From: a virus
Lineage: Duplodnaviria; Caudoviricetes
Length of the DNA stretch: 64,000 bases
Strand: one strand, 5' to 3'
Virus record (IMG/VR): IMGVR_UViG_3300021368_000002
Shown piece after piece: positions 8,161-60,673 of this stretch (position 1 is its first letter; each line of letters starts with the position of its first letter). A program made the translations under genes and the position numbers. Below the pieces are notes generated by a model that saw nothing but the letters and a program-made list of their open reading frames with translations, was not told the origin of the DNA and searched no databases.

Positions 8161-9006
8161 ATGCAAGATATAACTGTGGTTACAACTTTTCATAAACCCG
8201 GCTTAGAAGAATACGGTCAAAGATTTTTAGATAGTTTTGCTGAACGAGTTGATAAGAAAATTAAGTTACTTGTGTACGCAGAAGGCTGTTCACCTACTAT
8301 AGATCCTATGTGTGAAAACATTAGAGTTTTTGACCAATTTGAAGCATTACCTAAACTTAATGCATTTAAAAGCACCTGGAGTGCTGTTCCTAAAGCAAAT
8401 GGTATACCACCAGATGACATTAAAGCAAGAAGACCGAGAGACTGGCATAAAAAGTTCAAATGGGATGCTGTAAGATTTGCTAATAAGGTATATGCTGTAT
8501 TTGATGCTTGTGAACGTAGTAGTGATTGGTGTGTATGGATGGATGCTGATAGCTATATTCATAGCGATTGGAGTTATGAAGATTTTAAAAAACTATTACC
8601 AGACGACAAATGGATTACGTATGTAGGTAGAGGCAAAGGATCACAAACTTGGCCTGAGTGTGGATTTTATGGATTGAACTTAAAGCATGGTGCTTGCCAA
8701 ACATTTTTAGAAGAATTTGAACGGTTCTATGAAGATGCAGAGAATGGAATTTTTACATTAGAAGAATGGCATGATAGTTTTGTGTTTGGACATATTCTAA
8801 ATAAAATGAAAACCTTACGTCCAGATATTTTAGACTACAGTGCTAATATGTATATGCGTGAAGCAAAAACAGGTGGTGGAGGACATCCACTAATTAATGG
8901 ACCATTAGGCAAATTTATGGACCACATGAAAGGTGACAGGAAAGTTACTGGAAAAAGTAAAAAGTCTGATATGCTAGTACAGAGAAAAGAATCTTACTGG
9001 ACATAA
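8161..9006 (+). CDS. GT-A fold glycosyltransferase
   Basis: VVTTF start, RFANKVYA, DxD motif WMDAD, ECGFY, EWHDS. Confidence 0.8.
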   Translation: MQDITVVTTFHKPGLEEYGQRFLDSFAERVDKKIKLLVYAEGCSPTIDPMCENIRVFDQFEALPKLNAFKSTWSAVPKANGIPPDDIKARRPRDWHKKFKWDAVRFANKVYAVFDACERSSDWCVWMDADSYIHSDWSYEDFKKLLPDDKWITYVGRGKGSQTWPECGFYGLNLKHGACQTFLEEFERFYEDAENGIFTLEEWHDSFVFGHILNKMKTLRPDILDYSANMYMREAKTGGGGHPLINGPLGKFMDHMKGDRKVTGKSKKSDMLVQRKESYWT

Positions 9007-44163: not shown

Positions 44164-44169
44164 TATTTA
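44164..44169 (-). promoter_or_regulatory. late-type promoter gaTAAATA
   Basis: Upstream of an AAGGGG Shine-Dalgarno. Confidence 0.55.
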
Positions 44170-45939
44170 TCGCAAGGTAACTAACTTTCCGTACTCAGGC
44201 AAGTACAAGTAATCCAGATCACTTTGTTGTAAAGTCCAAAATGCATCTTCTAATGTTTCTACCAATGGTTCGCCACCTAAATTAAAACTCGTGTTGAAAA
44301 TAATAGGGCAGCCGGTCTTATCTTTAAATGTTTTAATTAGATCATAATAATTTGGATTCTGTTCTCTATTAACAGTTTGTATACGACAAGTACCATCTAC
44401 ATGAATAATAGCAGGAATCTTTTTCTCAATGCCAGGTTGACAGTTTACAGCATACATCATTGTAGGAGACGACTTCATACCACGTAGATCAAACCATTCA
44501 TGTGCATCTTCTTCAAGAATTGATCCAGCAAACGGACGGAAGTATTCTCTACGTTTAACTTCATTCACAAAATCCTTGCCATTAGGATCTGTAGGATCAT
44601 ATAGTATACTTCTGTTACCTAATGCACGTGGTCCATTTTCTGATCTTCCTTGGAAAATACATACAATATTTTTTTCTGTAATTAAATTTACTACATCCTC
44701 ATTAGTAGCGTCTTCTACAGTTGCTCCCCACTCTTCAGCTAAAGTTTCTATTTTATTTGAATAATCGTATTCAAATCCTAAGTACAATATATCTTGTCTA
44801 CCGTTATTTTTTGTAATTTTAGTTAAACTACGCCAATGTAGATATGCTGCACCAATAGCTGTACCGCAATCATTACTTACAGGTTCTACATATATTTCTA
44901 TACCGTCTTTTTGAAGATGCTGCAAATAAAAATAGTTAGCTACACAATTTAATCCATACCCGCCACTTATTACTACTTTTTTATGTCCTGTTAGTTCAAC
45001 TGCTTTATAAATTAAATTTAGAACTTGCTGTTGTGTTTGGGTTTGAACAGCATATGCCATGTCTCTCCTATTTTGTAATAGAGTAAGATCTTGACTATCG
45101 TGGTTGTCTAAATATTCAAAGTGTCCAGAGTTAACAAACGCTCCGTTTGGATAATTAGGAGTTATTATATTTCTATTAGAATATTCGCCTCTATCTGTTT
45201 TTTCAAATAGCGGCGGTATATCATCATTAGGTTTACCGTAAGGAAACAACCCCATTGTTTTTCCTGCTTCAATAAAATCCCAACCACAATAATTTGTTAC
45301 TGCTTCATACGTTTTTGTAATACCAGCTTTTTCAGTTACTGCTAATTCTATAGTTCCTTTTTCGTCGATAAAATCTGCATTACTTTCTTTATTGTAGCTA
45401 CTAAGCATAGGACCTCTTCCGCCTAAGTGCTTGTATTTTGTTTCAAAAATATCAGGATATCTACAATCAAAAATAGACTCAACTTCCCATATAGTTTCAT
45501 ATTCATTTGCAGGAATAAATGTACCTGCGCCATCAACTACGACTGCTGCTGCTTCATCAAACCCACTTCTGTAAAATGCACAAGCTGCATGAAGTTTGTG
45601 ATGATATTTTGCCATATCTATTACTTGGGGATGCTCTCCTGGCATTGCTTGTTTTTGTATCAATCCTAGCTTGCGAGCTAATGCTGTATAAATGTCCTCT
45701 CCTGTAAAGTCATTCTTGCCAGCTGTTTCCTGCAATGGTTGAGTATGAGCAATAACCAACCAGTCTAGTTTATCAGTATATTCTAATATTTTTGTCATCG
45801 ATGCAAGAGGTCCGCCGTCATATTTGACACGACTTAAACGTTCTTCTTCTATACTGAATACAACTTCACCGTCCTTAAGTAATGCAACACTTGCATTATG
45901 TCCTCTTGCTATTGCAGCAATCCATGTACTACTTTTCAT
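44167..45939 (-). CDS. carbamoyltransferase (NodU/CmcH/TobZ family)
   Basis: GHNASVA, EEERLSRVK, HH..HA, VVDGAG, GKTMGL..YG, SGGYGLN, GPRALGNRS, KRRE.FRPF, HVDGT.R.QT, NTSFN..GEP. Confidence 0.95.
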   Translation of the reverse strand: MKSSTWIAAIARGHNASVALLKDGEVVFSIEEERLSRVKYDGGPLASMTKILEYTDKLDWLVIAHTQPLQETAGKNDFTGEDIYTALARKLGLIQKQAMPGEHPQVIDMAKYHHKLHAACAFYRSGFDEAAAVVVDGAGTFIPANEYETIWEVESIFDCRYPDIFETKYKHLGGRGPMLSSYNKESNADFIDEKGTIELAVTEKAGITKTYEAVTNYCGWDFIEAGKTMGLFPYGKPNDDIPPLFEKTDRGEYSNRNIITPNYPNGAFVNSGHFEYLDNHDSQDLTLLQNRRDMAYAVQTQTQQQVLNLIYKAVELTGHKKVVISGGYGLNCVANYFYLQHLQKDGIEIYVEPVSNDCGTAIGAAYLHWRSLTKITKNNGRQDILYLGFEYDYSNKIETLAEEWGATVEDATNEDVVNLITEKNIVCIFQGRSENGPRALGNRSILYDPTDPNGKDFVNEVKRREYFRPFAGSILEEDAHEWFDLRGMKSSPTMMYAVNCQPGIEKKIPAIIHVDGTCRIQTVNREQNPNYYDLIKTFKDKTGCPIIFNTSFNLGGEPLVETLEDAFWTLQQSDLDYLYLPEYGKLVTLR

Positions 45940-45941
45940 AA

Positions 45942-46907
45942 TTATGCAGCCACCTGCGGTTTACCATTCCATTTTTTTTGATTGTTAACAACACTCTTAA
46001 CAATAACTTCTTCAATTTTTCCATTCATCACCATAACACCTTCATTAGTTCTATCTGCTAATTCATCTGCTGTAATTCTAATTGGACTATAAACACGAGC
46101 GCCTTCTCCCATGTCGAGTATATCAAAGTACTTACAATCTGGATAACTGATGTTTTCTTTAAATGTGCTTCCTATTACAACTGTGCTAGGAGTTTGCATA
46201 GAATAGGCAATATGTTGACCTACACTATCACATCCTAAGAAATAATCTGCGCAATTTATTATAGCAGCCCATTCTCTAATACTTGTGTTTAAAGGAACAG
46301 CAATAGGCTCGGTTACACCGTATTCATTAAACTGAATAGCAACTTCTCCCATAAACACTACAGCCATTTTTTTACTTAGAGCTTTAACAAGATTAATGAC
46401 AGATTCTGGTTCAAAACTTCTTCCGCTTGGATCCATTATTAATCCTTCTTGATTAACAACTCCCCTGCCGAACGGTTGAAAAACTAATACTTTATCTTTT
46501 TTAGTTTTTTCTTTTACTTCTTTAAGCAACTTAGTTGCCTGAAACATTTCTTCTTTGCCTAAATAAATATTTGGTTTAGGTAAGTCACGTAATCCTTTGT
46601 TGTTAATAGCAATATCATATGCCTGATTTAAGTGTGCTTTTTGATTGTAATATTCCCAAACTCTGTAAGGTTCTGGACTTAACAACTCCATGTCTTTTAA
46701 TTTTTCTTCAAATAGATTCTTATGCCATACGTCATAAGCTCTCTTAAATAAGGTCGGGTGACCTTTATAAAAATCTGTTCCGCCTTCGCATACAATTATA
46801 AAGTCGTCATCAGGATTTTCTTTTTCATATAATTCTAATGCAGGAATGCTAGAAATTACTCTGCCTGCACCACCGTTTATAAAAATAGCTGTATTTCGTT
46901 TGGTCAT
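45942..46907 (-). CDS. GT9 (heptosyltransferase)-like glycosyltransferase
   Basis: FQPFG, ADYFLGCDSVGQHIAYS..P..V..G (GT9 DSG..H.A motif); N-terminal GGAGRVI. Confidence 0.7.
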   Translation of the reverse strand: MTKRNTAIFINGGAGRVISSIPALELYEKENPDDDFIIVCEGGTDFYKGHPTLFKRAYDVWHKNLFEEKLKDMELLSPEPYRVWEYYNQKAHLNQAYDIAINNKGLRDLPKPNIYLGKEEMFQATKLLKEVKEKTKKDKVLVFQPFGRGVVNQEGLIMDPSGRSFEPESVINLVKALSKKMAVVFMGEVAIQFNEYGVTEPIAVPLNTSIREWAAIINCADYFLGCDSVGQHIAYSMQTPSTVVIGSTFKENISYPDCKYFDILDMGEGARVYSPIRITADELADRTNEGVMVMNGKIEEVIVKSVVNNQKKWNGKPQVAA

Positions 46908-46912
46908 AAAAA

Positions 46913-46948
46913 ATCCTCTCTAAATATGAAAATATTTATAGAGAGGAT
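46913..46948 (-). promoter_or_regulatory. 10-bp hairpin whose loop holds TATAAATA and whose 3' arm holds the Shine-Dalgarno; followed by T6 then ATG
   Basis: atcctctcta / tagagaggat arms; TATAAATA at 46940-46933. Confidence 0.75.
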
Positions 46949-46971
46949 CTTAAACTTTAATTAAATATGGC

Positions 46972-47619
46972 TTATTGATCTTCTTCAGTTTCTGGTGGTT
47001 TAATTCCAGCAGTTGGCTGAACAGGAAATAAAACTTCCCAGGGCTCTTTGTCTGCCCAAGTTGAAGGAATATCTCTTAGTTTCTGTCTCCAAGTAATCCA
47101 TTCATTTTTAATTGAATCTGGAACATCTGGTCTAACTCTTGCATCGCTGCCGGCTAATAGAAAATCTCTCGCACCTCTAACATCATCCCAAGTCATATCT
47201 TTAGTTGCAAATGCAAACGTCCATCCTGCAACAGGGTCATATGTAATATCTTCATACCTATGTATTTCATTAGGGCTAGGATATTCGTGTTCCATATGTG
47301 TTTCGTCGTCCGGAGTATCTAGCTCAATCTCTGGTAAATCGCTATCATCATAATCCATAGCAACTATGGTTGCAAGTAACGGCTCATCTGCTGCACTTAC
47401 TTCCACTTTTAGTTCTCCTGGAGGAGGAGAATATGTTTCTCCGTCCATATCAGCAGTCATGTAGGCCCTTGGAGCAAGTTTTCCTGTTTCTCTTTCCACA
47501 AACACCCAAAATCTATCAGGACCTTCATATGTCCAGTCTGCTGTTTTGTTTAATGTTCTAGCTGTTGACCAAATTTTATCTGGTACAGGATAGCTAAAAT
47601 TTACAGTTATATTTGGCAT
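46972..47619 (-). CDS. tail fibre assembly chaperone-like protein
   Basis: VRGARDFLLAGSD..W..WRQKLRDIP. Confidence 0.75.
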   Translation of the reverse strand: MPNITVNFSYPVPDKIWSTARTLNKTADWTYEGPDRFWVFVERETGKLAPRAYMTADMDGETYSPPPGELKVEVSAADEPLLATIVAMDYDDSDLPEIELDTPDDETHMEHEYPSPNEIHRYEDITYDPVAGWTFAFATKDMTWDDVRGARDFLLAGSDARVRPDVPDSIKNEWITWRQKLRDIPSTWADKEPWEVLFPVQPTAGIKPPETEEDQ

Positions 47620-47630
47620 ATTATTTTATC

Positions 47631-48365
47631 CTATCTAAATACTAAGTAAACCATTCCACCTGCGCCAGCGCCACCGCAATTACTGCTGCCGCCAAATCGT
47701 CCTGCTGTAAAGCCGCCGCCTCCTGGGAAGTGTCCAAACAATATAGCTCCCGAGCAAGTACAGCAACCGTTAATACCCATAGACATATGTCCTGTCATAG
47801 GTGCACCTGGTTGTACGCTAAATCCATGATTGTAACAATAGCTGTTTGACCACCAAAAGCCTTTATTACCTTGTATACACATAACATTATGTGAATCACC
47901 ATTGTATGATACTGGTGTTGTTTGCAATGATCCACAACATCTGTAACAGTAATGTCCATTACATTGATACCATCCATGACATCCGCCTTGAGCTCTAGCA
48001 CACCATTCGCCATTCAAACATACATATGAGTCAAAGCCGTTCTGACATGATCCAGTGCTTCTGCAACAAGTTGATCCTGCTGCACAAATTATCAGTGTAT
48101 CGCCCGGTGATACAGTTTTTGAACCTGCAATATATCCGCCTGCGTCTGCACCCATACCAATTGTACAGCATTGTCCTCCAGCGCCGGCGCCACCGCCTCC
48201 CCAGATTTCCCATGCTACAACAGTTTTATCTCCAGGAACAATAAATTCACAGCACGCCCCACCATTATTAACAGTTGTAGTGTTAGTATTGTATACCACG
48301 AGTTCCTGCGGAACTACTGCTCCGCCTTCATCATAACCATACAAGTAATCTCTAAGTGTTGCCAT
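47631..48365 (-). CDS. Cys/Gly-rich gp38-like adhesin paralog A (21 Cys in 244 aa)
   Basis: CC..VP..EIWGGGG.G..CC ... PGGGG..GAGG.V. Confidence 0.65.
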   Translation of the reverse strand: MATLRDYLYGYDEGGAVVPQELVVYNTNTTTVNNGGACCEFIVPGDKTVVAWEIWGGGGAGAGGQCCTIGMGADAGGYIAGSKTVSPGDTLIICAAGSTCCRSTGSCQNGFDSYVCLNGEWCARAQGGCHGWYQCNGHYCYRCCGSLQTTPVSYNGDSHNVMCIQGNKGFWWSNSYCYNHGFSVQPGAPMTGHMSMGINGCCTCSGAILFGHFPGGGGFTAGRFGGSSNCGGAGAGGMVYLVFR

Positions 48366-48377
48366 TATCTAAATTCC

Positions 48378-49139
48378 TTACGATGCTTCCGTTATGTACA
48401 TAATTTGTACCATTCCACTGCCGCCTTTTGCGCCGCAATATCTTGTTGATGTTCCGCCATTATTACTAGCCATACCGCTTGAACCTGGAATAGATTGACA
48501 GTTTCCTTGGCGAGCGTGTCCTGATTCATTTACACATCCGTTTCTACTCCACCAGCCGCCTGTCCATCCATATGGTGCTCCTGGTGCAAAATTTTTAAAA
48601 TGACACTTGTTGCCATATGTCCATTTTGCTTGTCCGTTCATACCGCAAATATGCATTGATGCTCCTGTAACACACCCACAAGCACATTGTCTTATTTGAC
48701 AGTTACCGTAACTACAATGTCCTAAACAAATTGTGCATCCTGGCTGTCCGCCATATGCTCTTAATTCGCAAGTTGAAGCTTTACAAATATAAGAATTATA
48801 TCCCTGTGTTCCTGTACAACCTGTACAACAATTCGTTGTACCGCCTGCACATATTGTCCATTGATCTCCTGGTGTTACTTCAAAAACTTTACGTCCGTAA
48901 CTACCGGCGCCACCAGGCTTGTTTGACCTATTACAACAGGATCCTGCACCTGAACCTCCGCCGCTCCAAAGTTCAACAGCGATCCATGTTACACCTGTAG
49001 GAACTGTCCATAAGCAACATTGTCCGCCATTGTTTACTGTGTTGGTATTTGTATTATAAATCCTTAACGTAGCCATTGTACCATTTGTTGGTGCTGTTGC
49101 TCCTGCGGAATATTCTAACAATGTTCTTAAGCCTGCCAT
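48378..49139 (-). CDS. Cys/Gly-rich gp38-like adhesin paralog B (22 Cys in 253 aa)
   Basis: Same scaffold: CCLWTVPTGVT..ELWSGGG..CC..GGAGSY..GGSGMV. Confidence 0.65.
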   Translation of the reverse strand: MAGLRTLLEYSAGATAPTNGTMATLRIYNTNTNTVNNGGQCCLWTVPTGVTWIAVELWSGGGSGAGSCCNRSNKPGGAGSYGRKVFEVTPGDQWTICAGGTTNCCTGCTGTQGYNSYICKASTCELRAYGGQPGCTICLGHCSYGNCQIRQCACGCVTGASMHICGMNGQAKWTYGNKCHFKNFAPGAPYGWTGGWWSRNGCVNESGHARQGNCQSIPGSSGMASNNGGTSTRYCGAKGGSGMVQIMYITEAS

Positions 49140-49150
49140 TTTTTATTTCC

Positions 49151-49789
49151 TTAATCTGATCCTGCGTCTGGAGTGTTGGGCAACGTTACTTTATGTGCAG
49201 GAATGCCGTTCCACGTAGCTGGTAAATCCCTTAGTGCAGCTCTATAGTCTAACCAAGGTTGTTTAACCGCTGCCGGCATATCTTCTGCAATATTACCGTC
49301 CGTTGCTTCTAACATTCTATCTCTAATTTCTCTTAACATTTCCCAAGTAATTTCTGGCTCTAGCATATCATATGTCCATGAACCGTCTGCATATGTTAAC
49401 GTATCTAAGTCAACAAATTCATCTGGTTCTAAAGGATATGAATATACCCAAGTCTCGCCGTTTGAAAGTGTTTGTGTTACATCTGATGCAGCAGTAGTCA
49501 TTGTAAACGCTGTTGGATCAATTAATGATGCAACTAAAGGATCTTGTTGACTATCTACTAGAACTTTTGTTGTACCTTCTGGTGCAGCAGCATTTTCACC
49601 GTCATTAGCTTCATCATAAAATGGATAAGTGTTTTCAATAACGCCAGTTGTTGCGTCTACAAATACCCACCATTTGGATGGACCTGTATATGAAGCATTT
49701 ACAGTTGTATTGTCCGCTACGCTTGATGATCTAAGCTCGTCTGGGCAAACATATGTAAATGTTTGTGTTATGGTTGTGTTTGTTGGCAT
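49151..49789 (-). CDS. tail fibre assembly chaperone-like protein (paralog of 46972..47619)
   Basis: LREIRDRMLEATD..W..YRAALRDLP. Confidence 0.75.
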   Translation of the reverse strand: MPTNTTITQTFTYVCPDELRSSSVADNTTVNASYTGPSKWWVFVDATTGVIENTYPFYDEANDGENAAAPEGTTKVLVDSQQDPLVASLIDPTAFTMTTAASDVTQTLSNGETWVYSYPLEPDEFVDLDTLTYADGSWTYDMLEPEITWEMLREIRDRMLEATDGNIAEDMPAAVKQPWLDYRAALRDLPATWNGIPAHKVTLPNTPDAGSD

Positions 49790-49801
49790 TTCTCTTTTCC
49801 T

Positions 49802-50533
49802 CTATGCAAATGATACTTTTACAATTCCGCCGGCGCCTTGGTCTCCACAATAGCAGTTATAATAACAGCAACTTCTTCCGTTAGGTCCTCCGCCTGATGG
49901 AAAGTTTGTACAAGTATAAGCACACCCATGTGCTCTATTTCCTACGTTACAAACTGAGCGTTCACCAACACTTTGGCCAAATTGATATGAGTGTCCTAGC
50001 CAATCGTTCCAGTGATGCAAACATCCGTCTTTGAGTGAGTTACCTCTAATTGATCCTAATGTAAAGTCTCCTGCTGCTCCCGGTGTGCAATAATACATCG
50101 GACAGCAAGTGCTTCCGTAAGCATAAAAACATTGTGTTCTGCCTCCACATCCTCCGCCTGCACAAGTAGTCGAAATACCTGATCCGCTAACGAATGATGT
50201 GTATCCTGTACAACCTACACAGTAATTAGATCTACAGCTAGATCCTCCTGCACAAATTGTATATTGACAGCCAGCTACTGTAGAAATCGTTCTAGTACTA
50301 TATGCTCCGCCTGCTGCTGTTTGAGAAGATGATTGACAGCATCTTGCGCCAGCACCGCCGCCGCCACCTCCCCATAATTCAAATGTTACCTGTGTTACAC
50401 CATCGGGCACAGTCCATAGACAACATTTACCACCAGAGTTGTGTGCTCTTGACATATTATATACATAAAATGTTTGCATTGCCGGCGGTGCAGCCGGTGC
50501 TACATCTGATTTCAAACTTTGTAATGTTGCCAT
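49802..50533 (-). CDS. Cys/Gly-rich gp38-like adhesin paralog C (23 Cys in 243 aa)
   Basis: CCLWTVPDGVT..FELWGGGGGG..CC..GGAY..GAGGIV. Confidence 0.65.
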   Translation of the reverse strand: MATLQSLKSDVAPAAPPAMQTFYVYNMSRAHNSGGKCCLWTVPDGVTQVTFELWGGGGGGAGARCCQSSSQTAAGGAYSTRTISTVAGCQYTICAGGSSCRSNYCVGCTGYTSFVSGSGISTTCAGGGCGGRTQCFYAYGSTCCPMYYCTPGAAGDFTLGSIRGNSLKDGCLHHWNDWLGHSYQFGQSVGERSVCNVGNRAHGCAYTCTNFPSGGGPNGRSCCYYNCYCGDQGAGGIVKVSFA

Positions 50534-50546
50534 TTTTTATTCCTTA

Positions 50547-50879
50547 TTAAGATCCTGCTAAGACCCAACCGTATGTTGCTCCGCTGTATACTAGTGTTGC
50601 TGCGCTGTTGCCGATGTCTAATGATAGATCCTCTGTAAGTCCATGTATCTTATGTCCATTACGAGCAACAGTAGCGTTGTTTGTTCCAAAGTTACCTCCA
50701 ATATCAATAAATTGGATTGTGTCGTTTACTAATGTATCAGACGACCCTGGTAATGTTAATGTAATAGCCCCTGCTGTTGTATCTATCAATAGGCGTTCGT
50801 TAGCGACTGCATTAGTATTTGCAGTGACAGTTCTTACGGTGGTGCCTGCTGACCCAGTTGTTGTAATGTATCTTGCCAT
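50547..50879 (-). CDS. stand-alone T4 gp34-type fibre domain
   Basis: DTTAGAITLTLP..GD-type I.FID..GNF..N..T..RNG.KI.G..DL..LVY..GW. Confidence 0.65.
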   Translation of the reverse strand: MARYITTTGSAGTTVRTVTANTNAVANERLLIDTTAGAITLTLPGSSDTLVNDTIQFIDIGGNFGTNNATVARNGHKIHGLTEDLSLDIGNSAATLVYSGATYGWVLAGS

Positions 50880-50905
50880 TTTAAATTATCCTAACTTCCT
50901 ATTTG

Positions 50906-50911
50906 TATTTA
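50906..50911 (-). promoter_or_regulatory. late-type promoter TAAATA overlapping a stop codon
   Basis: Upstream of AGGA-containing leader of the 110-aa gene. Confidence 0.45.
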
Positions 50912-51229
50912 TGCAGTTGGAGTCTCAACACCAAACGCAACTGCGGTTGTATTAGCTGCACTACTTCTTACAACTAATTTCTGACCTGCACCAACTGCAA
51001 TACCTGTTCTTTCAAGTACGCCTTTGGGCATGATTTCTGTTTCATATTCTATATATTCAGCAGCAGTTGGTGTATCTAAATCTGCAACCGCTAGCCTAAT
51101 AGTTATAGCTTGGTTTCCTCTATTAACAATAGAAACACTTGTAATTGCAAACGTGCTAGTTGGCACTGTATACAAAGTAGTATTTGTATCTGCTAATAAA
51201 TTTTCTGCTCCTAGTCTTCCTGATGCCAT
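50909..51229 (-). CDS. small beta-sandwich structural protein (106 aa)
   Basis: TLYTVP..SVSIVN..IEYE..ERTGI..GQKL..FGVE; tail locus. Confidence 0.65.
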   Translation of the reverse strand: MASGRLGAENLLADTNTTLYTVPTSTFAITSVSIVNRGNQAITIRLAVADLDTPTAAEYIEYETEIMPKGVLERTGIAVGAGQKLVVRSSAANTTAVAFGVETPTA

Positions 51230-51239
51230 TATATTATCC

Positions 51240-54200
51240 TTACGAGTTCAAAAAGTATTGCAGTGCCAAAGGTGTGCCACTTAGTCCTGCTTCAAAATTA
51301 ATTGGTTTATCAATTGTTATTCCGCTACTATCAGTTGTTGTAATAGTGTTACCTGAAATTTGTACCACACCAGCAACAAGCGTATTTACATTAAGAGTAG
51401 CTGCACCGCCACCAATTTGTGAGTTAATATAAGTTCTGATCGCTCGCTGCGTAGGAACAATTTCATCACTATCAGCAGCAAATGTTCCGTCAGTGCTAAA
51501 TTCTTTAATTGTTGCACTTGTACCACCTAATGATACAGAACCTAGTTGTAGTTCTTGCAACCCGCTAACACTAAAGTTGTCAGCATCTAGTGTAGCAGTA
51601 CCAGTTGCCTGTTCAACAGTAAACAAGTCGCCAACTCTAAAGTTACCATCTTGGTCTGTTGATGTATAGAATACTCTACCACCGCCACCTTCTACAGTTT
51701 CATTAGCAGGAGTTGGATTTTGTAGCGGAATACCCGGATAATTGGTTTGTGTGAAATTACCTGTACCAATATCTAGGAAATCGTGTCCTGTTAATCGCAC
51801 TTGTGAATATCTAATTCTATGTGTTACTGCCGCAGCGTGAGCAGGTTCCCCATCTACAGGAATCTCTGGACTTAATTGCAATCTAGCAGTATATGGTCCA
51901 GAACCACCTAATTCAAATAATTGAACAAGTTTGTAGATTGTACTATCGCCTGCTATTTGAATATTTGCTCCAGGTTGCGGTTCGTCGGTTAAATTTTCTA
52001 CATAAACATATTTTCCGCTTTGTAAAATATCAGCATAACCGTCACCAGTTACATCTGCACTTGCTGTCTCATAACCTGTTCCTCTATCAGCAAAGGTAGG
52101 TTGTGCAAGCACTCCGCTACCTACTCTTACCGTATGGGGTACATCTACAGTGTTGTTTGGATCTGTAATTGTCATTGTAGGCGGACTTGCAGGATCATAT
52201 CCAGTGCCCGGTTCTATAATTACAATTTTAAATATTTTATCACCTGCGACTTTTGCTCTTCCTCTTGCAGTTGTTCCAGTTACTGGATCAGCAAACGTAA
52301 CTCTTGGCTCTATTCTATAGTTTGATGTTTGATCTAATGTAGTTTCAATAGCAGTTCCAGGAACAAGATGGTCCCATCCTGCTGTATCGTCACTCATTTT
52401 CTTTACTGTTGCAATTTTTGTACCAGCATTGTATGTGTCAATATAAGCATATTGTCCTACCCCTACGCCGTCTTCTATATAGATTGCCATACCAACATAG
52501 TCTGCACTATTTGCTGTATCTGTGTTCGAAATAGTAATAGTAGTTGATGTACCGCTTTGAGCATTATTGAGTGCTGTTGTGTAATCTGCACCACCATAGT
52601 TATTTGCTGGATTAGTAAGTTGCACTGCAAAAACACCATTTGTCCTTGTATTTACTGCACTAACACTTGCACCTATACCTTCACCTACAAAGCTATAAGA
52701 TGCTGTTGTGTAGTTAACACCTGCATTTTCGTATTCTAGTGCTAATATTCTACTACCATCTGTAAATACGCTATTAATAATAGCTTCTGCATAGTAGTTA
52801 TTTACTGTACCTGTTATAGGTGTTTCAGTAGTATCAATACCTTCAGCTACTGATCCAAAATCACCATAAGAGTTGTTTCCGTTTGTAGCACGAATCTTAC
52901 CACCGTTCTCTGCAAGATATCCAATATGGTTGTAATACGTAAACACTGACACAAGTTCTGAGCGGCCTAAGTTTGTTACCCAGTAACCAATACCATCACT
53001 TAGAATCTGTGTAAAGTCGTTAGCAACAATTGAATCGTTTCCGCCTGCGTGTAGATCACCATCTACTTTTAATCCTATACAAGCTGTACCAAATGTTGAA
53101 ACGTTTTGAATGTAAGGTGATTTGTTATGAATCCATACAAGCCTATCATCTACACCCTCGCCTGGATCTAAACTCACATATGCACCTGCTGATGGACGAC
53201 TTGTGCCATAAGAATTTGCAGCGCCTAAAGTACCTGTAAGTCCTGCTAGTGTGCAATTTCTAATACCACATCCGTTTCTAACATAAAACATATTTTCAGT
53301 TAGTGAATCACCGTCTGGAGTAATTCTTGTACTACGTAATTCGTCTCCAACAATAGCTGTATGTGAAGGAACACTAATCGGTAATGCTTCTGCATATGTT
53401 CCTGTCTTAACATATAGTGTATTATGAATCACTTGTTCTGCAGGTAAACTTGATAAGTTTCCTGCTGTAATCGCTGCTGTTATATGTGAAACAAGTGAGT
53501 CGTAAGTGCTTTCAGCATCTGTTTCTGCTGTGTAGGCTACATCAATTACTTGTGTAACTGGAGTTGCTACACTGTTTTCTGTTTGGTAATTTGTTGCAGG
53601 AGGTGTATTTCCTAAAACTGCTGCTACAACATCTAAACTGTAATTTATTGCTGCAACTGTTTCTGTTTCCTGGCCAGCAACGTAACTTGCACCAGCTGTT
53701 GTAAAATATGACTGCGCTGCTTTTCTTGTTTCTACATTACCGCCATGTGATATATCATACCCTACGTGTTTTACAATTCTTTTCATATCACGTAAACATT
53801 TTGTTTTATCGTATGTAAATGCTCCTGTAAATGGCGCAATCGCATTTGCAATTTGATAATCAACCCATTCAACTGTTTCTGCTGCAATAAAATCAATATT
53901 TTGATCTAAAAGATATTTTGCATTTACACGAGTAGTTGCATTAAGTATTTGTGAACAAGCATATGCAACTGTTAGCCAAGGCCTGTCTGCTGTAATACCA
54001 TATGTCGGAGCAGGAGAGTCTGTACCTTGTGGTGAAACATAATAGACATTATCTACAAGTCCAAAATAATCCCATTCTACACCAGTGCCAGCAGTGTCAA
54101 CTTTTAAAACTTGTCCCGGGTCACCAATTGGTAATCTAGTAGGTCCAGCTCCTGAATAATAAAGAATATCACCATCTGTTGTTAAAACATTTTCTTCAGC

Positions 54201-55508
54201 TGTTGCACCTACTAGATTCCAAAATGTACCATTAGAATCCAAGTCCGGTCTATTGCTTGCATTATCTGAAGTATGGTTTTGTTGAGCTACATAAGCGTTG
54301 TCGCTATATTTAACAAGATCGCCTATTTTGTATGCAGTAGCATCTGCCCAGTCGCCCTGCCATGCAAAACCTTCGTTTAGTTTGCTCCAATATGTTGTGT
54401 TTGGTGGTTCTTGTCCTGTGCTATCTGCTGTTGCAAGATATGTGTATCCATTTACTCGGACAACATCGCCCACTTTGTATGCTGTAGCAACATCCCAATC
54501 ACCTTGTAGGTTAAATCCTGTAATATATACGTCCCAGTCAGTAGTAGCAGTTGAAGGTGTACTACCTGAATGGTTTGTTTTTGCAACATATGTATATCCA
54601 CCGTACGATACAATATCTCCAGGTTGATAAACAGTTGCTACGTTCCAGCTATCTTCAAATTCTAAACCAGGTAAGAAAACTTCCCAATTAGATTGATCTG
54701 TTTGGAATAAACTTGTGCTAGTGTGGTATGTTGTACAAATCCAAAGACTTGGGCCGTTTTTAACAATGTCGTTTACTACATATCTTGTGTTTTGCTGCCA
54801 TGCTGATCTATAATTAATACCTTGATGATAAACATTCCAATTTGCAATATCATTTTCTAATCCTAAAGCAGCATCAGATGTTGATGTGTGTCCTGTGATA
54901 GCAATATAGATAAACCCGTTATATTTTACGATGTCATCTTTCTTGTATCTAGTTGATATTGCCCAATCACCTTTCCAATCAATTCCTGGAGTGAATTCAT
55001 TCCAATTAGCAATATCATCTTCTAAACCATCAGTAACAGTTTCGGCACTAGTATGCGCTGTTGCACATATGTATGTTGTACCGCCATACTTAGCAATGTC
55101 GTTAACTTTATATTTTGTGTTTATTGTCCAAGCGCCAGTATATGAAAGCCCTTCAGCAAAAATATCCCACTTAGACTGATCGTCTTCTAAGCCTAGTGCA
55201 TTTGTAGCAGCAGATGTGTGTCCTGTGTTACAAATGTAAATGTATCCGCCGTTTCTAACAATGTCGTTAACTTTAAAATATTTGTTAACTACCCAGTCGC
55301 CTTCCCATGTTAGACCGTCGCCGAATTGTTGCCATTTAGGTTGAACATCGTTTAAATCAGTTTCTAGGTTTGCAGCACCTGTGTGTGCAAGTATACATAT
55401 GAAGGTTTTACCTCCATACTGTACAATATCATCTCGTACGTACTCAGTTCCTGTCGCCCAGGCACCTTTCCAAATAAATCTAATTCTACCAAGTTTAAAC
55501 TCAGCCAT
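51240..55508 (-). CDS. large tail fibre/spike: eight CBM5/12-like repeats, phycobiliprotein-like insert, beta-helix, conserved C-terminus
   Basis: W...T.Y..DIV..GG..Y.C...H repeats; YYVSPQG.D; start MAEFKL at 55508 behind GGGGAG. Confidence 0.8.
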   Translation of the reverse strand: MAEFKLGRIRFIWKGAWATGTEYVRDDIVQYGGKTFICILAHTGAANLETDLNDVQPKWQQFGDGLTWEGDWVVNKYFKVNDIVRNGGYIYICNTGHTSAATNALGLEDDQSKWDIFAEGLSYTGAWTINTKYKVNDIAKYGGTTYICATAHTSAETVTDGLEDDIANWNEFTPGIDWKGDWAISTRYKKDDIVKYNGFIYIAITGHTSTSDAALGLENDIANWNVYHQGINYRSAWQQNTRYVVNDIVKNGPSLWICTTYHTSTSLFQTDQSNWEVFLPGLEFEDSWNVATVYQPGDIVSYGGYTYVAKTNHSGSTPSTATTDWDVYITGFNLQGDWDVATAYKVGDVVRVNGYTYLATADSTGQEPPNTTYWSKLNEGFAWQGDWADATAYKIGDLVKYSDNAYVAQQNHTSDNASNRPDLDSNGTFWNLVGATAEENVLTTDGDILYYSGAGPTRLPIGDPGQVLKVDTAGTGVEWDYFGLVDNVYYVSPQGTDSPAPTYGITADRPWLTVAYACSQILNATTRVNAKYLLDQNIDFIAAETVEWVDYQIANAIAPFTGAFTYDKTKCLRDMKRIVKHVGYDISHGGNVETRKAAQSYFTTAGASYVAGQETETVAAINYSLDVVAAVLGNTPPATNYQTENSVATPVTQVIDVAYTAETDAESTYDSLVSHITAAITAGNLSSLPAEQVIHNTLYVKTGTYAEALPISVPSHTAIVGDELRSTRITPDGDSLTENMFYVRNGCGIRNCTLAGLTGTLGAANSYGTSRPSAGAYVSLDPGEGVDDRLVWIHNKSPYIQNVSTFGTACIGLKVDGDLHAGGNDSIVANDFTQILSDGIGYWVTNLGRSELVSVFTYYNHIGYLAENGGKIRATNGNNSYGDFGSVAEGIDTTETPITGTVNNYYAEAIINSVFTDGSRILALEYENAGVNYTTASYSFVGEGIGASVSAVNTRTNGVFAVQLTNPANNYGGADYTTALNNAQSGTSTTITISNTDTANSADYVGMAIYIEDGVGVGQYAYIDTYNAGTKIATVKKMSDDTAGWDHLVPGTAIETTLDQTSNYRIEPRVTFADPVTGTTARGRAKVAGDKIFKIVIIEPGTGYDPASPPTMTITDPNNTVDVPHTVRVGSGVLAQPTFADRGTGYETASADVTGDGYADILQSGKYVYVENLTDEPQPGANIQIAGDSTIYKLVQLFELGGSGPYTARLQLSPEIPVDGEPAHAAAVTHRIRYSQVRLTGHDFLDIGTGNFTQTNYPGIPLQNPTPANETVEGGGGRVFYTSTDQDGNFRVGDLFTVEQATGTATLDADNFSVSGLQELQLGSVSLGGTSATIKEFSTDGTFAADSDEIVPTQRAIRTYINSQIGGGAATLNVNTLVAGVVQISGNTITTTDSSGITIDKPINFEAGLSGTPLALQYFLNS
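51628..51686. repeat. 59-nt direct repeat copy 1 (58/59 identical to 55956..56014)
   Basis: Base-by-base comparison. Confidence 0.95.
52990..53027. repeat. 38-nt direct repeat copy 1 (37/38 identical to 58263..58300)
   Basis: Base-by-base comparison. Confidence 0.95.
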
Positions 55509-55542
55509 CCGGTTCACTCTCCCCTAACTGGCGTTATACAGT

Positions 55543-55558: not shown

Positions 55559-58500
55559 CTACTTAGCTGTGAAAAGGTTTTGTTGTAGTCCCACTCCTGA
55601 CATTCCTCCAATAGCAGTGACAGGTGCTGTAACTTTCAAAGACGTGCTTTCGCCCGACGGTAACAATCCTATTGTTTTATTTTGTATTTGAACGTCTCCT
55701 GCAATAAGTGTGTTAGCATTAACAACAGCACCACCACTTGAAATACGTGCTTCAAAATATCCTGCAATCGCTCGTTGAGTAGGCACAATATTGTCGCTAT
55801 TAGCAACAAATGTTTGGTCTTTTGAAAATTCTCTAACAACAGCACTTGTACCGCCTAATACAATACCACCTAATACAAGCTCATCTAATCCAGATAAGTC
55901 AAACTGGCTTGCACTAATTGTCACAACACCAGTAGCTTGGTCAACTTTAAACAGTTCGCCAACTCTAAAGTTACCATCTTGATCTGTTGATGTATAGAAT
56001 ACTCTACCACCGCCTGAACCAACTGTTTCTTGGAACTGTCGAGGTGTATTTTCACTTGTGTATCCAAATACATATCTATTAGGATATGCAGTTTCTGTAA
56101 AGTTACCTGTGCCTATATCTAAGAAGTCATGTCCTGTTAATCTTATTTGACTATATTTTTGTCTAATTTCTACTTGCGTGTCATGTTGTGGAGCAGTATT
56201 AGTATCTAAATTTGGAGTAATTTGTAATCTAGCTGTAAGATTTGGTTCTGTACCCGTTACATCTTCAATTTTTTGTATACTAAATTGTGCTCCTGGTAAT
56301 GATCCAAATGTAAGAGCATCACCTGGACCAGGAATTCTTAAAAGATCTTTAACAAATATAATACCACTGCTTGGGAATATATCTGCATATCCATCTCCTA
56401 ATATTTCTACAGATGCCCGTGTATATTCGATACCGCCACTAGTTAAAAACGGTTGTGCTAAAACGCCATCGTTTACTCTAAATTGATACACAGCATCTAT
56501 AGTTGAGTTTTGATCGTAAATTATTCCCTCTGGCAGAGTGTTATACCCAGCACCTGGATTTACAATATTAATCTGGTCTAAGCTCTGACTTCTCACACTA
56601 CATCTTGCAATAGCAGGTGTACCATATGTAATAGGAGTAATAGTGCTTGCACTACTGTTATTGGCAGGAATGTAATAGTGCTGCCCTGTGCATGAAATCA
56701 AATTAACTGCTCTAACGTCAACACCTCCAGTAGGAGTAAGTGGATACCAATTAATTGCATCAACACTAGCAACTGTTGCACCTGTATTTGCCATAGCAAA
56801 ATATAATCCTTGTTCACCTGTTACATACCATGTAGCAATACTTGTTTCTGTAAGATTACTTGGATTTGGTTTAATGCTTTCTTGTAAATTAAATACAGGT
56901 GTTTGATCACCTGAAACATGGGCAACTACAGTTCTTGCCGGATTAACAGAAGTTGAGTCTCTAACCATTGCTACAAATGATCTCGGTCCACCATCAAAAT
57001 CTGTTACAATGTAATTAGCAGGTAAAGGTAATCCTGACTGATTGTTACCTTGTATCCATGAACTTCCACTATCTTTTGATTCGTAGATATTTCCGTTTGT
57101 ATCGCAAACCATCCAATAATCGCCAGATACTCCTACAAAATTAAACCCAGATCCTAATCCAGTTGTTGATGTAGTCCAGCTGCTTCCGCCATCGGTAGAT
57201 ACATAAATGGCATCTGCTGACGGATTAGTAACCATAACAACATTACCTTGTGCTTTTATGTCGCTAAATGCTGTTCCTGGTATTGTGCCTGCGCTCCAAT
57301 TTATTCCATCTGCTGATGTTTTACTATTTCCACTTGCGCCTATTGCAATAAATTTGTCATTTACCCAAACACATCCTATCCAGTCATCGGAGTCAGAAAC
57401 TGATGCATTTGTCCAACTTGTACCTCCGTCTGTACTGTATGAAAACACACTGCCTTGAACACTTGTTAAAACTACAGTATTTTCACCATCAGTAGCAGAA
57501 GCACCAATTCTCTTAAAACTACCAGTAGATACAGATCCAGCGTTAAATCCAGGTTTGTTTATGTCTAAATATGGCTCTATAGAATATCTTGTAGTTCCAT
57601 CTAAACTAGATTCTATTGGTTTGCCTTCTATTATTGTATTCCATCCCGGTTGACCCCATATGTTAGTAATTGTTGCAACTTTTGTGGAAAAATCATATGT
57701 ATCGATTTTGCCCCATTGACCTGCACCTATACCTTTAATAATCCATATACACATACCTACATAATCATTAGACACATTTTCGTCAGCTGCTGCTAATGTA
57801 ATTTGTGTTTCAGATCCAGCTTGAGCATTATTTTCAATTCTTCTAAATCCAAAACCACCAGCTGTTGAAGAGTCGTCAGCATCTAATAAACGTACTTGAG
57901 ATACTCCGCGTTTTCTAAAATCGTTATAGGTTAAGTTAGCACTTACCCCAGACCCTGTAACTGTTGTAGTTGCGTTTGAATATTCTTGTCCTGCGTGTTC
58001 GTACACCAACCCTACAACCCTATCATCATTGTCAATAATTGTAGCTTCAACTAGTGCTTCACTTGTTCGGTTATCTAAAACTGCACTAATTGCTGATTCT
58101 GCTGTGTTCGATCCTTCTGCAACAGATCCATAATCTCCGTAGGAATTATTTCCGTTTGTAGCTCTTAACTTACCGCCGTTTGTAGCAAGATAACCTATAT
58201 GGCAATAGTATGTAAATACAGAAACAAGTTCAGACTTTCCTTCTTCATTTGCCCAATAACCGATACCATCACTTAGAATTTGTGTAAAGTCGTTAGCAAC
58301 CATTGACTTGTTACCACCATCGTGTAACTCTCCATCAATTTTCATACCTATACATCCTGTTCCAAATGTTGTAACATTTTGGACGTAAGGAGATTTACTA
58401 GTAATCCAAACACTTTGGTCTGTAGGTCCTGTTCCAGGATCTAGTGCAACATATGCTCCTGCATTAGGTCTACGTGTAAAATATGAATTTTGTTCACCTA

Positions 58501-60673
58501 ATTCACCATTTAATCCTTGTAAAGTACAATTTCTTAACCCTGTTCCATTATGCATTCTAAACATATCACTTAGTTCAAATGTTGGAGCAGGTTTTATTAC
58601 TGTGCTTCTAAGTTCGTCACCTACTATAGCAGTATCTGTAGGAACAACTATAGGAAGAACTTCTGAATATGTACCCGTTTTTACAAATATTGTTGCAGGG
58701 CGTCTACCTGCATCAGCACCAACATATTCACAAGCATATTTAATTGTTCTAAACGGACTTCCTTCAGTTCCTGCTGTAGGAATATCTTGCCCTCGTAGCG
58801 AAACATAATATGTATTATCGGCGAAATTTAACGAATCCCAAGTAACAATATTTGTGTTATCTACTACTAATGTAGATCCTACAGAACCTACAGGTTTTCT
58901 TACATCTGCTCCGTCTTCTCTAGTTTTAAGGTCTCCCCTGTTGTTTAGAACGTTTGTTGCACTGCCTTCATAAAAAGTTTCCCAGTAACTGCCGTCGTCA
59001 ACATTAGGAGCAACTAAACTACTATCATCTGACGAGTGAGATTGTATACATACATATGAACTGCCTGCAAAACCGACTACATCGCCTAAAGTATAATATG
59101 TTGCTTCTTGCCAAGGGCCTTTCCAATCGTTACCTGTAACAATTTTAACCCAACTTGAACTATCACTAGTAAATGTAATACCATTAGTGTCATACATTCC
59201 TGAATGGTTAACACATACAATGTAAATAGTACCTGCGTTTGGAGCAACTAATTCTATACTTCTTGAGGTTTCAGCATCGTCAAAGTTATCAAAATAATCT
59301 TCTCGTGTGCTTGCCACTCCGTCTATTCTATATGTAACATTTGTTTCATAATAATTGTAACTACCGCCATCATGATGACCGTTTTGTGTTGTGCTAAAAT
59401 ATATTGCGTGTCCTGAATTTGTAATACTTGATTGATCAAAAACGTAAGTATTACCAGCTACTAAATTAAGTGCAGGGGATTGAGTATTATTTACAAAATA
59501 CTTATTAGAAGAATTTACGTTTTCTACTGTAACTGTATAAGTTATAGTCTGAATAGGTTCAAAAGGATAAGAACTTGTATCTTGGATTGCACTAAAAATA
59601 TTACCGCCTTCACGAATTGTATCTCCTGAATAATAATATGTATTTTCAGTCCATTGACCTCTCCAATTATAACCTTCAACTACGATTTCCCAATTTGGAC
59701 TTCCTGCAGGTAAGTTACCTAAATTGTTATCTAGCAAACTTCTATAACTATATCCACCATACATAACAATATCACCATACTGATATGTTGTTAGTGAATT
59801 ATATAATGTTTCGTATCCTGTTCCTGGAATATAAAGTTGAAATGCGCCTTGTGGAAACTCTGTAGTGTTTGTAAGTGTGATACATTTTTGGAGACTACTT
59901 CCTACTCTTACAACATCGCCTACAAGATAAGTTGTATTGGCTGTCCATGTGCCCATGTAACGAACACCATCTAAAATTAATTCCCAGTTGCTACTATTGC
60001 CTTCTAAACCTATTAACGCACTTGCATCACTTGAATGTCCTACTGTACATCTGTATAGTCTTGCACCATATCTTACAATATTATCTTTATAATATCTAGT
60101 TGCTACGGTCCAGGTATTTCTCCATTGTGACCCTCTGTTTACATAGGTCCAATTTACAATATCGTTTTCTAAGCCTTGCGAAGCATCTGACGCAATATGT
60201 CCGGTAGTACAAATATATGTTGATCCGTTGTAATTTATTACATCACCTAATTCATACTGTCTACCTGCAACCCAAAAATCTCGCCAGTCAAAAGTTGTAG
60301 CGACAAAATCCCAATAGTCTATATTTTCAACTAGTCCGTCTATAGATAAATCAGCACTTGTATGACCTGTATTTGCTTTATATAAAGTTGCACCATACTT
60401 GACTATTTCGTTTTGTTCATACTTTGTTTGTGTTGTCCACAAACCTCTCCATTTTTGTCCATCTGACATTAATTCCCAGCGTGGTTCTGGATTGCCATAT
60501 TGATCTACTGCGTTTAAATCATTATCAAATGTGGCCGGATCAGCAATGTGTCCTATTAAACAAACGTAAATTTTACCGCCATTTGATACAATATCGTCTT
60601 GATTGTAAGATATGCCAGATCCGTGTGGACCTCTCCAAACATATTTAAATCGTGTAATATTAAACTCTGCCAT
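55559..60673 (-). CDS. large tail fibre/spike paralog: eight CBM5/12-like repeats, cupredoxin insert, beta-helix, BNR propeller
   Basis: Same scaffold as the 1425-aa protein; S.DGG.SW BNR repeats; CVNHSGM. Confidence 0.8.
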   Translation of the reverse strand: MAEFNITRFKYVWRGPHGSGISYNQDDIVSNGGKIYVCLIGHIADPATFDNDLNAVDQYGNPEPRWELMSDGQKWRGLWTTQTKYEQNEIVKYGATLYKANTGHTSADLSIDGLVENIDYWDFVATTFDWRDFWVAGRQYELGDVINYNGSTYICTTGHIASDASQGLENDIVNWTYVNRGSQWRNTWTVATRYYKDNIVRYGARLYRCTVGHSSDASALIGLEGNSSNWELILDGVRYMGTWTANTTYLVGDVVRVGSSLQKCITLTNTTEFPQGAFQLYIPGTGYETLYNSLTTYQYGDIVMYGGYSYRSLLDNNLGNLPAGSPNWEIVVEGYNWRGQWTENTYYYSGDTIREGGNIFSAIQDTSSYPFEPIQTITYTVTVENVNSSNKYFVNNTQSPALNLVAGNTYVFDQSSITNSGHAIYFSTTQNGHHDGGSYNYYETNVTYRIDGVASTREDYFDNFDDAETSRSIELVAPNAGTIYIVCVNHSGMYDTNGITFTSDSSSWVKIVTGNDWKGPWQEATYYTLGDVVGFAGSSYVCIQSHSSDDSSLVAPNVDDGSYWETFYEGSATNVLNNRGDLKTREDGADVRKPVGSVGSTLVVDNTNIVTWDSLNFADNTYYVSLRGQDIPTAGTEGSPFRTIKYACEYVGADAGRRPATIFVKTGTYSEVLPIVVPTDTAIVGDELRSTVIKPAPTFELSDMFRMHNGTGLRNCTLQGLNGELGEQNSYFTRRPNAGAYVALDPGTGPTDQSVWITSKSPYVQNVTTFGTGCIGMKIDGELHDGGNKSMVANDFTQILSDGIGYWANEEGKSELVSVFTYYCHIGYLATNGGKLRATNGNNSYGDYGSVAEGSNTAESAISAVLDNRTSEALVEATIIDNDDRVVGLVYEHAGQEYSNATTTVTGSGVSANLTYNDFRKRGVSQVRLLDADDSSTAGGFGFRRIENNAQAGSETQITLAAADENVSNDYVGMCIWIIKGIGAGQWGKIDTYDFSTKVATITNIWGQPGWNTIIEGKPIESSLDGTTRYSIEPYLDINKPGFNAGSVSTGSFKRIGASATDGENTVVLTSVQGSVFSYSTDGGTSWTNASVSDSDDWIGCVWVNDKFIAIGASGNSKTSADGINWSAGTIPGTAFSDIKAQGNVVMVTNPSADAIYVSTDGGSSWTTSTTGLGSGFNFVGVSGDYWMVCDTNGNIYESKDSGSSWIQGNNQSGLPLPANYIVTDFDGGPRSFVAMVRDSTSVNPARTVVAHVSGDQTPVFNLQESIKPNPSNLTETSIATWYVTGEQGLYFAMANTGATVASVDAINWYPLTPTGGVDVRAVNLISCTGQHYYIPANNSSASTITPITYGTPAIARCSVRSQSLDQINIVNPGAGYNTLPEGIIYDQNSTIDAVYQFRVNDGVLAQPFLTSGGIEYTRASVEILGDGYADIFPSSGIIFVKDLLRIPGPGDALTFGSLPGAQFSIQKIEDVTGTEPNLTARLQITPNLDTNTAPQHDTQVEIRQKYSQIRLTGHDFLDIGTGNFTETAYPNRYVFGYTSENTPRQFQETVGSGGGRVFYTSTDQDGNFRVGELFKVDQATGVVTISASQFDLSGLDELVLGGIVLGGTSAVVREFSKDQTFVANSDNIVPTQRAIAGYFEARISSGGAVVNANTLIAGDVQIQNKTIGLLPSGESTSLKVTAPVTAIGGMSGVGLQQNLFTAK
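55956..56014. repeat. 59-nt direct repeat copy 2
   Basis: Matches 51628..51686. Confidence 0.95.
58263..58300. repeat. 38-nt direct repeat copy 2
   Basis: Matches 52990..53027. Confidence 0.95.

Follow-up and report, generated by a model that had tools for sequence, protein, structure and literature searches.

Three cysteine-rich proteins and two assembly chaperones form a candidate tail-fibre tip module in a T4-like marine cyanophage

The findings presented here support that three cysteine-rich paralogs, which we call A, B and C, are tail-fibre tip proteins accompanied by Tfa-type chaperones. They are encoded in a 64,000-nt stretch of viral DNA (IMG/VR record IMGVR_UViG_3300021368_000002; Duplodnaviria, Caudoviricetes). 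This whole stretch, referred to below as the window, belongs to a T4-like myovirus encoding tail sheath, tail tube, large terminase and UvsX. According to our preferred reading, whose chances we would put at about even, A, B and C are paralogous subunits of a distal receptor-binding knob on the long tail fibre, probably built as one C-B-A heterotrimer. The array comprises five genes in the order C, chaperone, B, A, chaperone:

49802-50533, minus strand: candidate cysteine-rich tip subunit C (position 1), 243 aa, 23 Cys (9.5%), 4 vicinal CC pairs
49151-49789, minus strand: first tail-fibre assembly chaperone, 212 aa, Phage_tail_APC, phrog_9740 and phrog_4912
48378-49139, minus strand: candidate cysteine-rich tip subunit B (position 2), 253 aa, 22 Cys (8.7%), 3 vicinal CC pairs
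47631-48365, minus strand: candidate cysteine-rich tip subunit A (position 3), 244 aa, 21 Cys (8.6%), 5 vicinal CC pairs
46972-47619, minus strand: second tail-fibre assembly chaperone, 215 aa, Phage_tail_APC, phrog_9740

Among the 44 open reading frames (ORFs) of at least 150 aa in the window, in which cysteine averaged 1.15%, A, B and C were the three richest and lay more than 3-fold ahead of the next (2.6%). Together they have 66 Cys. They also contained 18-21% glycine, showed 35-38% pairwise identity and had the motifs CC..W.VP and W.GGG..G in common. The original prediction, made from the DNA letters, had placed here three paralogs of 243-253 aa with 21-23 Cys, vicinal CC pairs and a common scaffold, interleaved with two chaperones in the order given above. 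The ORFs, the Cys counts, the CC pairs, the motifs and the gene order were all verified, and both chaperones scored above the Pfam cut-off for Phage_tail_APC. The loops between the glycine runs had been described as unrelated. They are indeed poorly conserved, with an entropy peak at residues 131-215 of B, and the paralogs differ most in their C-terminal halves, but the loops can still be aligned and so are not unrelated.

A Pfam scan taken to E 0.1 returned only Gly_rich_2 (PF21722) for the three proteins. C (34.2 bits) and B (30.5 bits) exceeded the curated cut-off of 24.3 bits. A stayed under it with 14.1 bits, and its paralogy comes from its 35-38% identity to B and C together with phrog_4205, a family annotated as of unknown function that matched all three proteins (C, 1e-34; B, 7e-25; A, 6e-10). 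Searches of PDB sequences with C alone and with a profile of the family gave nothing meaningful. An AlphaFold2 (AF2) model of B, built on an alignment of 74 relatives, reached a predicted local distance difference test score (pLDDT) of 83.9 and a predicted template modelling score (pTM) of 0.83. Residues 20-253 of this model matched the Pam3 fibre protein gp24 (7ypx_A) with Z 19.6 and a root mean square deviation of 2.7 Å over 195 aligned residues, followed by the Bxb1 tail-tip chain 9d93_Q (Z 13.2) and the TG domains of ALK/LTK (Z 9-11.5), and the first unrelated fold fell to Z 3.9. N-terminal to the fold, the B model has one short helix (residues 4-9) and no long helical baseplate-docking shaft as in Pam3 gp24. 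C starts with a short MxxLxxL peptide, behind which lie a TNF-like domain and a Gly-rich domain of the polyglycine-II (PGII) kind. In the architecture that we propose, each subunit would carry an N-terminal docking peptide of ~20 residues (MxxLRxLL type), a TNF-like jelly-roll and a PGII lattice.

The paralogs had originally been called gp38-like, but Pfam GP38 gave no match to A, B or C in the scan described above, S16 gp38 was not among the Foldseek/VIA fold matches listed for the B model, and the fold is that of Pam3 gp24, the Bxb1 tail-tip chain and the ALK TG domain. T-even gp38 (S16 gp38, PDB 6F45) resembles the window proteins in being a small separate tip protein with a PGII lattice, variable distal loops and N-terminal attachment. 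In contrast, the middle domain of the window proteins is TNF-like and not a beta-helix, and S16 gp38 is a monomer on the gp37 trimer. The authors of the Pam3 study could align no more than 52 C-alpha atoms of Pam3 gp24 with S16 gp38, an overlap in the Gly lattice (PMC9608196). We therefore take T-even gp38 to be an analogue and not the family to which A, B and C belong. On the basis of the model, "Pam3 gp24-like" is the right label instead of "gp38-like".

Pam3 gp24 is a trimer in which an N-terminal helical shaft is joined to a head composed of a four-layer polyglycine lattice and a TNF-like domain; host recognition was proposed for this head. It folds with the chaperone gp25 in a 3:3 complex; the variable N-domain of gp25 grips the fibre head and its conserved helical C-domain is like Tfa of phage Mu (PMC9608196). 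The window system resembles that of Pam3 (PDB 7ypx, 7yfw) in the TNF-like and PGII head, in a downstream Tfa-type chaperone whose N-domain is variable and whose helical C-domain is conserved, and in a cyanobacterial host. The Pam3 assembly is trimeric, and that of the window is trimeric in the model only. The two also differ, as one gene makes a homotrimer in Pam3 whereas the window has three old paralogs, and the long N-terminal helical shaft that docks Pam3 gp24 to the baseplate contrasts with a ~20-residue peptide and genes placed after long fibres in the window. In addition, the text of PMC9608196 has 0 occurrences of "cysteine" or "disulfide", while the window subunits contain ~9% Cys, and sequence identity between Pam3 gp24 and the window proteins is ~20%. 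The same domain family includes other Gly_rich_2 proteins (mycobacteriophage minor tail proteins, Bxb1 9d93_Q and giant-virus "glycine-rich domain" proteins), and the domain usually stands at the end of tail proteins, as it does in the window fibre at 61090-63999. These other members are Cys-poor, whereas the Cys-rich branch comes as stand-alone triplets. The extracellular TG domain of ALK/LTK shows the same two-part fold over ~145 residues and is a ligand-binding module, but it belongs to an animal receptor kinase that is not trimeric via this domain, and no evolutionary link is claimed.

Both chaperones exceeded the Pfam cut-off of 26.6 bits for Phage_tail_APC (PF16778), the first with 39.4 bits at residues 150-208 and the second with 30.1 bits at its C-terminus. 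They are 33% identical and both match tail-fibre assembly PHROGs. The AF2 model of the first (pLDDT 95.4) consists of a beta-rich N-domain (residues 6-139) and a helical C-domain (residues 149-192). As in assembly proteins of the Mu/P2 type, the C-terminal domain is the conserved one and the chaperones follow their client genes; the window differs in that the N-terminal 140 residues are beta-rich with no clear solved relative, and in having two chaperone genes for three clients. Altogether, Phage_tail_APC, the PHROGs, the Pam3 gp24 fold and the synteny with fibre genes back the earlier proposal of a tail-fibre tip with chaperones and a polyglycine lattice. The two interleaved Tfa/gp25-type chaperones would hold and register the subunits while these fold, and would then depart. 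A close strain from another seawater run differed from the window at 21 positions over 46900-51300, of which 14 fell in the helical C-domain of the first chaperone (49178-49379, residues 137-204), four of them non-synonymous. This cluster may be a recombination patch.

The Cys-rich family extends well beyond the window. A search of 5.8 billion proteins yielded 77 relatives, all unnamed or "hypothetical" and all with 6-11% Cys, and a profile search of 1.84 billion representatives gave 338 clusters at E <=1e-10, the best 150 of which had a median of 8.9% Cys. Among the relatives retrieved, the Cys-rich branch (phrog_4205) occurred only in marine cyanomyovirus-like contigs, as stand-alone sets. 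Cultured carriers were S-SSM7, S-SSM6a, Sf-FS3, P-SSM2, P-SSM5 and S-CAM1. S-SSM7 has three genes of 261-264 aa with 11% Cys, located 3' of a tail fibre and 5' of one chaperone. P-SSM2 has two 355-aa genes with 36 Cys each, one on either side of a chaperone, with a helical-looking N-terminal extension of ~100 residues. Megablast of 46900-51300 against cultured phages found nothing, and relatives appeared at the protein level only. IMG/VR contained 206 relatives, from which 78 loci were retrieved; with the window, S-SSM7 and P-SSM2 they make up the 81 loci classified here. Type I, with the order of the window (Cys-chaperone-Cys-Cys-chaperone), applied to 39 out of 81 loci and type II, with the order of S-SSM7 (Cys-Cys-Cys-chaperone), to 36, the other six being of the P-SSM2 type or contigs cut at one end. 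A chaperone gene was present in nearly all loci examined. Across type I loci the second chaperone ranged from 205 to 496 aa (L010-L042) and the first from 212 to 245 aa, reaching 327 aa in one locus.

Exactly three Cys-rich genes were found in 75 of the 81 loci, and no complete locus with one or four such genes was seen among them. In trees of 210 and 78 sequences, each window gene grouped with the same-position genes of other loci. Specifically, the type I positions formed nearly single clades, with A in the position-3 clade (support 98-99) and C in the position-1 clade. Type II was a separate clade (SH-like approximate likelihood ratio test, SH-aLRT, 99.2) within which whole triplets clustered by sub-lineage, indicating that triplication or homogenisation occurred more than once and that the copy number was kept at three. 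Identity between paralogs of the same locus was 30-47% in type I and 51-73% in type II. Gene-by-gene identities put the divergence of the triplet genes roughly on a par with that of the enzymes encoded next to them, the chaperones being the fastest, and all six differences in A, B and C relative to the close strain were synonymous. Neither these identities nor the one-strain comparison revealed a faster change that would indicate hypervariability of the Cys-rich genes. Since each window gene groups with the same-position gene of other loci, the three appear, from their sequences, to be an old fixed set and not interchangeable cassettes. The tips had been proposed to be interchangeable, with cassette swapping in related genomes as the check; freely swapped cassettes do not fit the three genes in 75/81 loci, the same-position clades, the unaccelerated divergence or the purely synonymous strain differences.

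Conservation also extends to the cysteines. Between 16 and 18 alignment columns were Cys in at least 60% of the family members; in B numbering, Cys 41, 42 and 97 hardly ever vary, with further conservation at 68-70, 104, 108, 127, 138, 147, 177 and 202. Both TGT and TGC occur in every conserved Cys column, showing that selection is on the Cys residue itself. Almost no Cys lies at the trimer interface of the model described below, which argues for a role within each subunit, and the ~16-18 conserved Cys would brace the subunit interior. The fold is made in a reducing cytoplasm. The Cys are most likely present mostly as disulfides formed after release into oxic water; they would close once the particle meets oxic seawater, and some thiols may stay free or bind metal. 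Disulfides in the Pam3 virion were shown by mass spectrometry and dithiothreitol treatment, so a cyanophage particle can contain functional disulfides (PMC9942802).

A serious rival, independent of how the subunits assemble, is that the conserved Cys bind metal as Zn, Fe-S or Cu(I) thiolate clusters instead of forming disulfides. Several observations would suit it. Cys parity is random, without even-number bias (triplet sums even in 16/35 and 17/35, single proteins even in 11-21/35), and single Cys have been gained and lost over evolution. Neither S-SSM7 nor P-SSM2 yielded a phage oxidase, the cytoplasm is reducing, and dense C-x2-C and C-x-C-x-C runs occur, e.g., at residues 135-156 of B. Precedents also exist, as the lambda tail-tip protein gpL carries an Fe-S cluster and T4 fibre tips bind Fe and Zn. 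However, neither conserved His partners nor a canonical cluster motif was found across the family, and the Cys-free domain of the 61090 fibre has small residues (V, A, S, T or G) at the columns of the core Cys, as expected of packing positions. Metal is scarce for oceanic picocyanobacteria, and Pam3 virions carry real disulfides. Weighing both sides, we consider metal sites rather unlikely as the main state of these Cys. A paired gain/loss test of the Cys columns gave top correlations that mirror the split between types I and II. Regarding oxidation, a search for Erv-type oxidases found no match, but control genomes were equally silent and the result is uninformative; a scan of the window for CxxC motifs of the thioredoxin, glutaredoxin and DsbA types found nothing in real ORFs.

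The tip would have to sit on a fibre, and the genes directly upstream of the array supply the candidates:

50547-50879, minus strand: 110-aa XD1-like junction module, directly upstream of the triplet, phmmer match to 7rej_A
50909-51229, minus strand: 106-aa small fibre-related protein, phrog_11338 tail fiber protein (1e-11)
51240-55517, minus strand: long tail fibre, 1425 aa, candidate tip-carrying shaft, C-terminal ~225 residues best conserved
55559-60673, minus strand: second long fibre, 1704 aa, C-terminus likewise conserved
61090-63999, minus strand: fibre with a Cys-free Gly-rich end, incomplete at the window edge, Gly_rich_2 26.3 bits at residues 684-895

The last of these had been singled out earlier for its Gly-rich end devoid of Cys, and this was borne out by the Gly_rich_2 match and by zero Cys in residues 640-969, the last 330 residues. 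In the 1425-aa fibre, the C-terminal ~225 residues showed 57-59% identity over 55 homologues, compared with 40-45% upstream, and were 51-53% identical even to those of S-SSM7 and P-SSM2. The C-terminal 140 residues of the 1704-aa fibre align with those of the 1425-aa fibre. By these identities, the fibre C-terminus reverses the pattern of a receptor-binding end, that is, of the usual variable fibre tip. The 110-aa protein matched residues 90-175 of 7rej_A, an anchor fragment of CBA120 TSP4, with E 2.6e-12 (phmmer). This stretch of TSP4 corresponds to the XD1 module, which T4 gp9 and gp10 also have (domain limits from PMC8825819). In S-SSM7-type loci the long fibre carries this XD1-like module as a C-terminal fusion (L001, ~8700-8886), while in the window it is a separate gene; this fusion places the module at the far end of the fibre. 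All three paralogs have an N-terminal motif in common, which is MxxLRxLL in type I, MAxYxSYKK in type II and an extension of ~100 residues in the P-SSM2 type, and it shifts together in all three with the locus type. These patterns suggest that the short N-termini dock the Cys-rich proteins onto the fibre end, and the knob would probably be seated on the conserved end of a trimeric fibre via the 106-aa protein and the 110-aa XD1-like module.

A model of C, B and A together (C as chain 1) gave an ipSAE (interaction prediction score from aligned errors) of 0.82, against 0.20 for the best control; the mark was reached by 58 out of 80 solved complexes and by 2 out of 110 mismatched pairs. Model runs had 40-63% of their contacts in common, and partner pLDDT was 71-75. 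The subunits would form a trimer, most likely a C-B-A heterotrimer with pseudo-threefold symmetry, because nearly every locus has three old paralogs, no more and no fewer, each specific to its position. The trimer model also bears on the possibility that A, B and C are individual gp38-like adhesins, taking turns as fibre caps or capping different fibres, and provide several receptor specificities per virion or population. With one common N-terminal motif they could compete for a single docking site, at least two of the window's long fibres resemble each other at the C-terminus, the polyglycine lattice is common with S16 gp38 (PMC9608196), and the greatest differences lie in the C-terminal halves of the paralogs. 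We consider this quite improbable, as there is no Pfam GP38 match, the solved relative of the fold is a trimer and not a monomeric cap, and the trimer model passed its controls. The three genes in 75/81 loci, their position-specific clades, a divergence no faster than that of the neighbours and close-strain differences that are synonymous only also speak against it.

Another alternative, which we judge unlikely but more probable than separate adhesins, is that the array builds two or three separate homotrimeric knobs or short fibres (pairing, e.g., C to the first chaperone and B/A to the second), each with its own site on the fibre or baseplate. Pam3 gp24 is itself a homotrimer, type I chaperones are placed after C and after B-A, and in P-SSM2-type loci both genes bring what look like N-terminal helices of their own. 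Covariation over modelled B-A contacts gave no edge over the equivalent homo contacts (normalised mutual information 0.43 versus 0.49 and 0.50, not significant) and did not tell hetero- from homotrimers. In contrast, in type II loci one chaperone serves three paralogs, the common N-terminal motif speaks against three different sockets, and gain and loss of knobs would be expected, yet no complete locus has one or four genes.

Several points weigh against the heterotrimeric distal knob. The C+B+A model backs trimer formation only and does not tell a heterotrimer from homotrimers, because the chains are paralogous, the Pam3 trimer is a solved structure and the alignments supplied were our own. 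P-SSM2-type loci hold two longer genes instead of three, and the two chaperones per three subunits of type I loci could mean two assemblies (C alone, and B with A); both arrangements leave room for other stoichiometries. The fold search with the first-chaperone model gave a best Z of 5.1 (DnaK lid) and no clear PDB relative, with Pam3 gp25 unlisted. Odd Cys counts are as frequent as even ones, which means that some Cys must lie outside disulfides, and genes for DsbA, thioredoxin (PF00085) and VKOR are all missing from the complete genomes of S-SSM7 and P-SSM2. Finally, no virion proteomics literature was found for phages carrying the Cys-rich family, and we infer the presence of these proteins in the virion. 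The P-SSM2 genes T4-GC 299 and 301 are unique to that phage, and the family lies outside the coverage of the S-SM1, S-PM2 and Syn9 proteomes. A link between the reported receptor-binding protein ("RBP") of S-SCSM2R and the family was tried and could not be made. The lack of a proteomic detection on record would also suit a purely intracellular role, such as assembly factors or thiol/metal buffers, outside the virion, but the fibre-head fold, the dedicated Tfa-type chaperones and the location of the genes inside the fibre operon, ahead of its terminator, make this very improbable.

The most elaborate form of the heterotrimer proposal is an obligate heterotrimeric knob of three ancient paralogs on the long fibres of marine T4-like cyanophages. 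Their number would have stayed at three while triplication or homogenisation took place at least three separate times, and ~8 disulfides or metal-thiolate sites would brace each subunit and form without a phage oxidase, so that tip maturation and perhaps adsorption would depend on redox state. We regard this full version as doubtful.

Downstream of the last chaperone, two further features were recorded:

46905-46950, minus strand: hairpin and T-run directly 3' of the last chaperone, likely terminator, holding TATAAATA
44167-46907, minus strand: GT9-like transferase and NodU-type carbamoyltransferase, downstream of the triplet

No terminators were found on the minus strand inside the array, and the 46905-46950 hairpin is likely to be the end of the fibre and tip transcription unit. 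TATAAATA has two sites in the whole window, one of them within this hairpin, and the element may be both a terminator and a late promoter. The module order was the same in ~75 loci together with S-SSM7 and P-SSM2: long fibre(s), 106-aa protein, 110-aa module, triplet with chaperone(s), GT9-like transferase and carbamoyltransferase. Many type I loci have two long fibres upstream, and type I loci nearly always have the 106-aa protein between long fibre and 110-aa module; P-SSM2 has it too (PSSM2_302). The GT9-like and NodU-type carbamoyltransferase pair lies 3' of the triplet in nearly all of the ~75 loci, and these enzymes may modify fibre or tip proteins. Several studies have metagenomes of seawater, marine, marsh or estuary origin in which the phage was detected. 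RNA libraries included two contigs of 175 nt identical to 48250-48424 and 50124-50274, for which DNA carry-over is possible. Two further observations concern Gly-rich proteins elsewhere. In Syn9 (L085, 8856-12328), the fibre genes gp32-34 are directly followed by those for the small proteins gp36, gp38 and gp39, with 22-35% Gly and 0.8-2.5% Cys. The three resemble a tip set of this kind that is poor in Cys, and gp39 looks like an internal duplication. The protein P0142 from the representatives search has 5418 aa and seven matches to the Cys-rich profile yet 0.2% Cys, and hence is a giant protein of many Gly-rich domains.

The receptor-binding proteins of oceanic cyanomyoviruses of Prochlorococcus and Synechococcus are largely unassigned, and the S-SSM7 and P-SSM2 copies of this family are annotated as hypothetical. 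The present analysis offers a concrete candidate for the distal tip, along with the chaperones that belong to it and the chain on which it likely docks. If true, a tip that combines three paralogs in one heterotrimer would be unusual, as the solved heads of the TNF-like/PGII fold are homotrimers, and it would triple the evolvable surface. A content of 9-12% Cys in a protein made in a reducing cytoplasm raises the question of how and when the thiols are oxidised or loaded with metal, and whether adsorption could respond to redox conditions in seawater or at the host surface.

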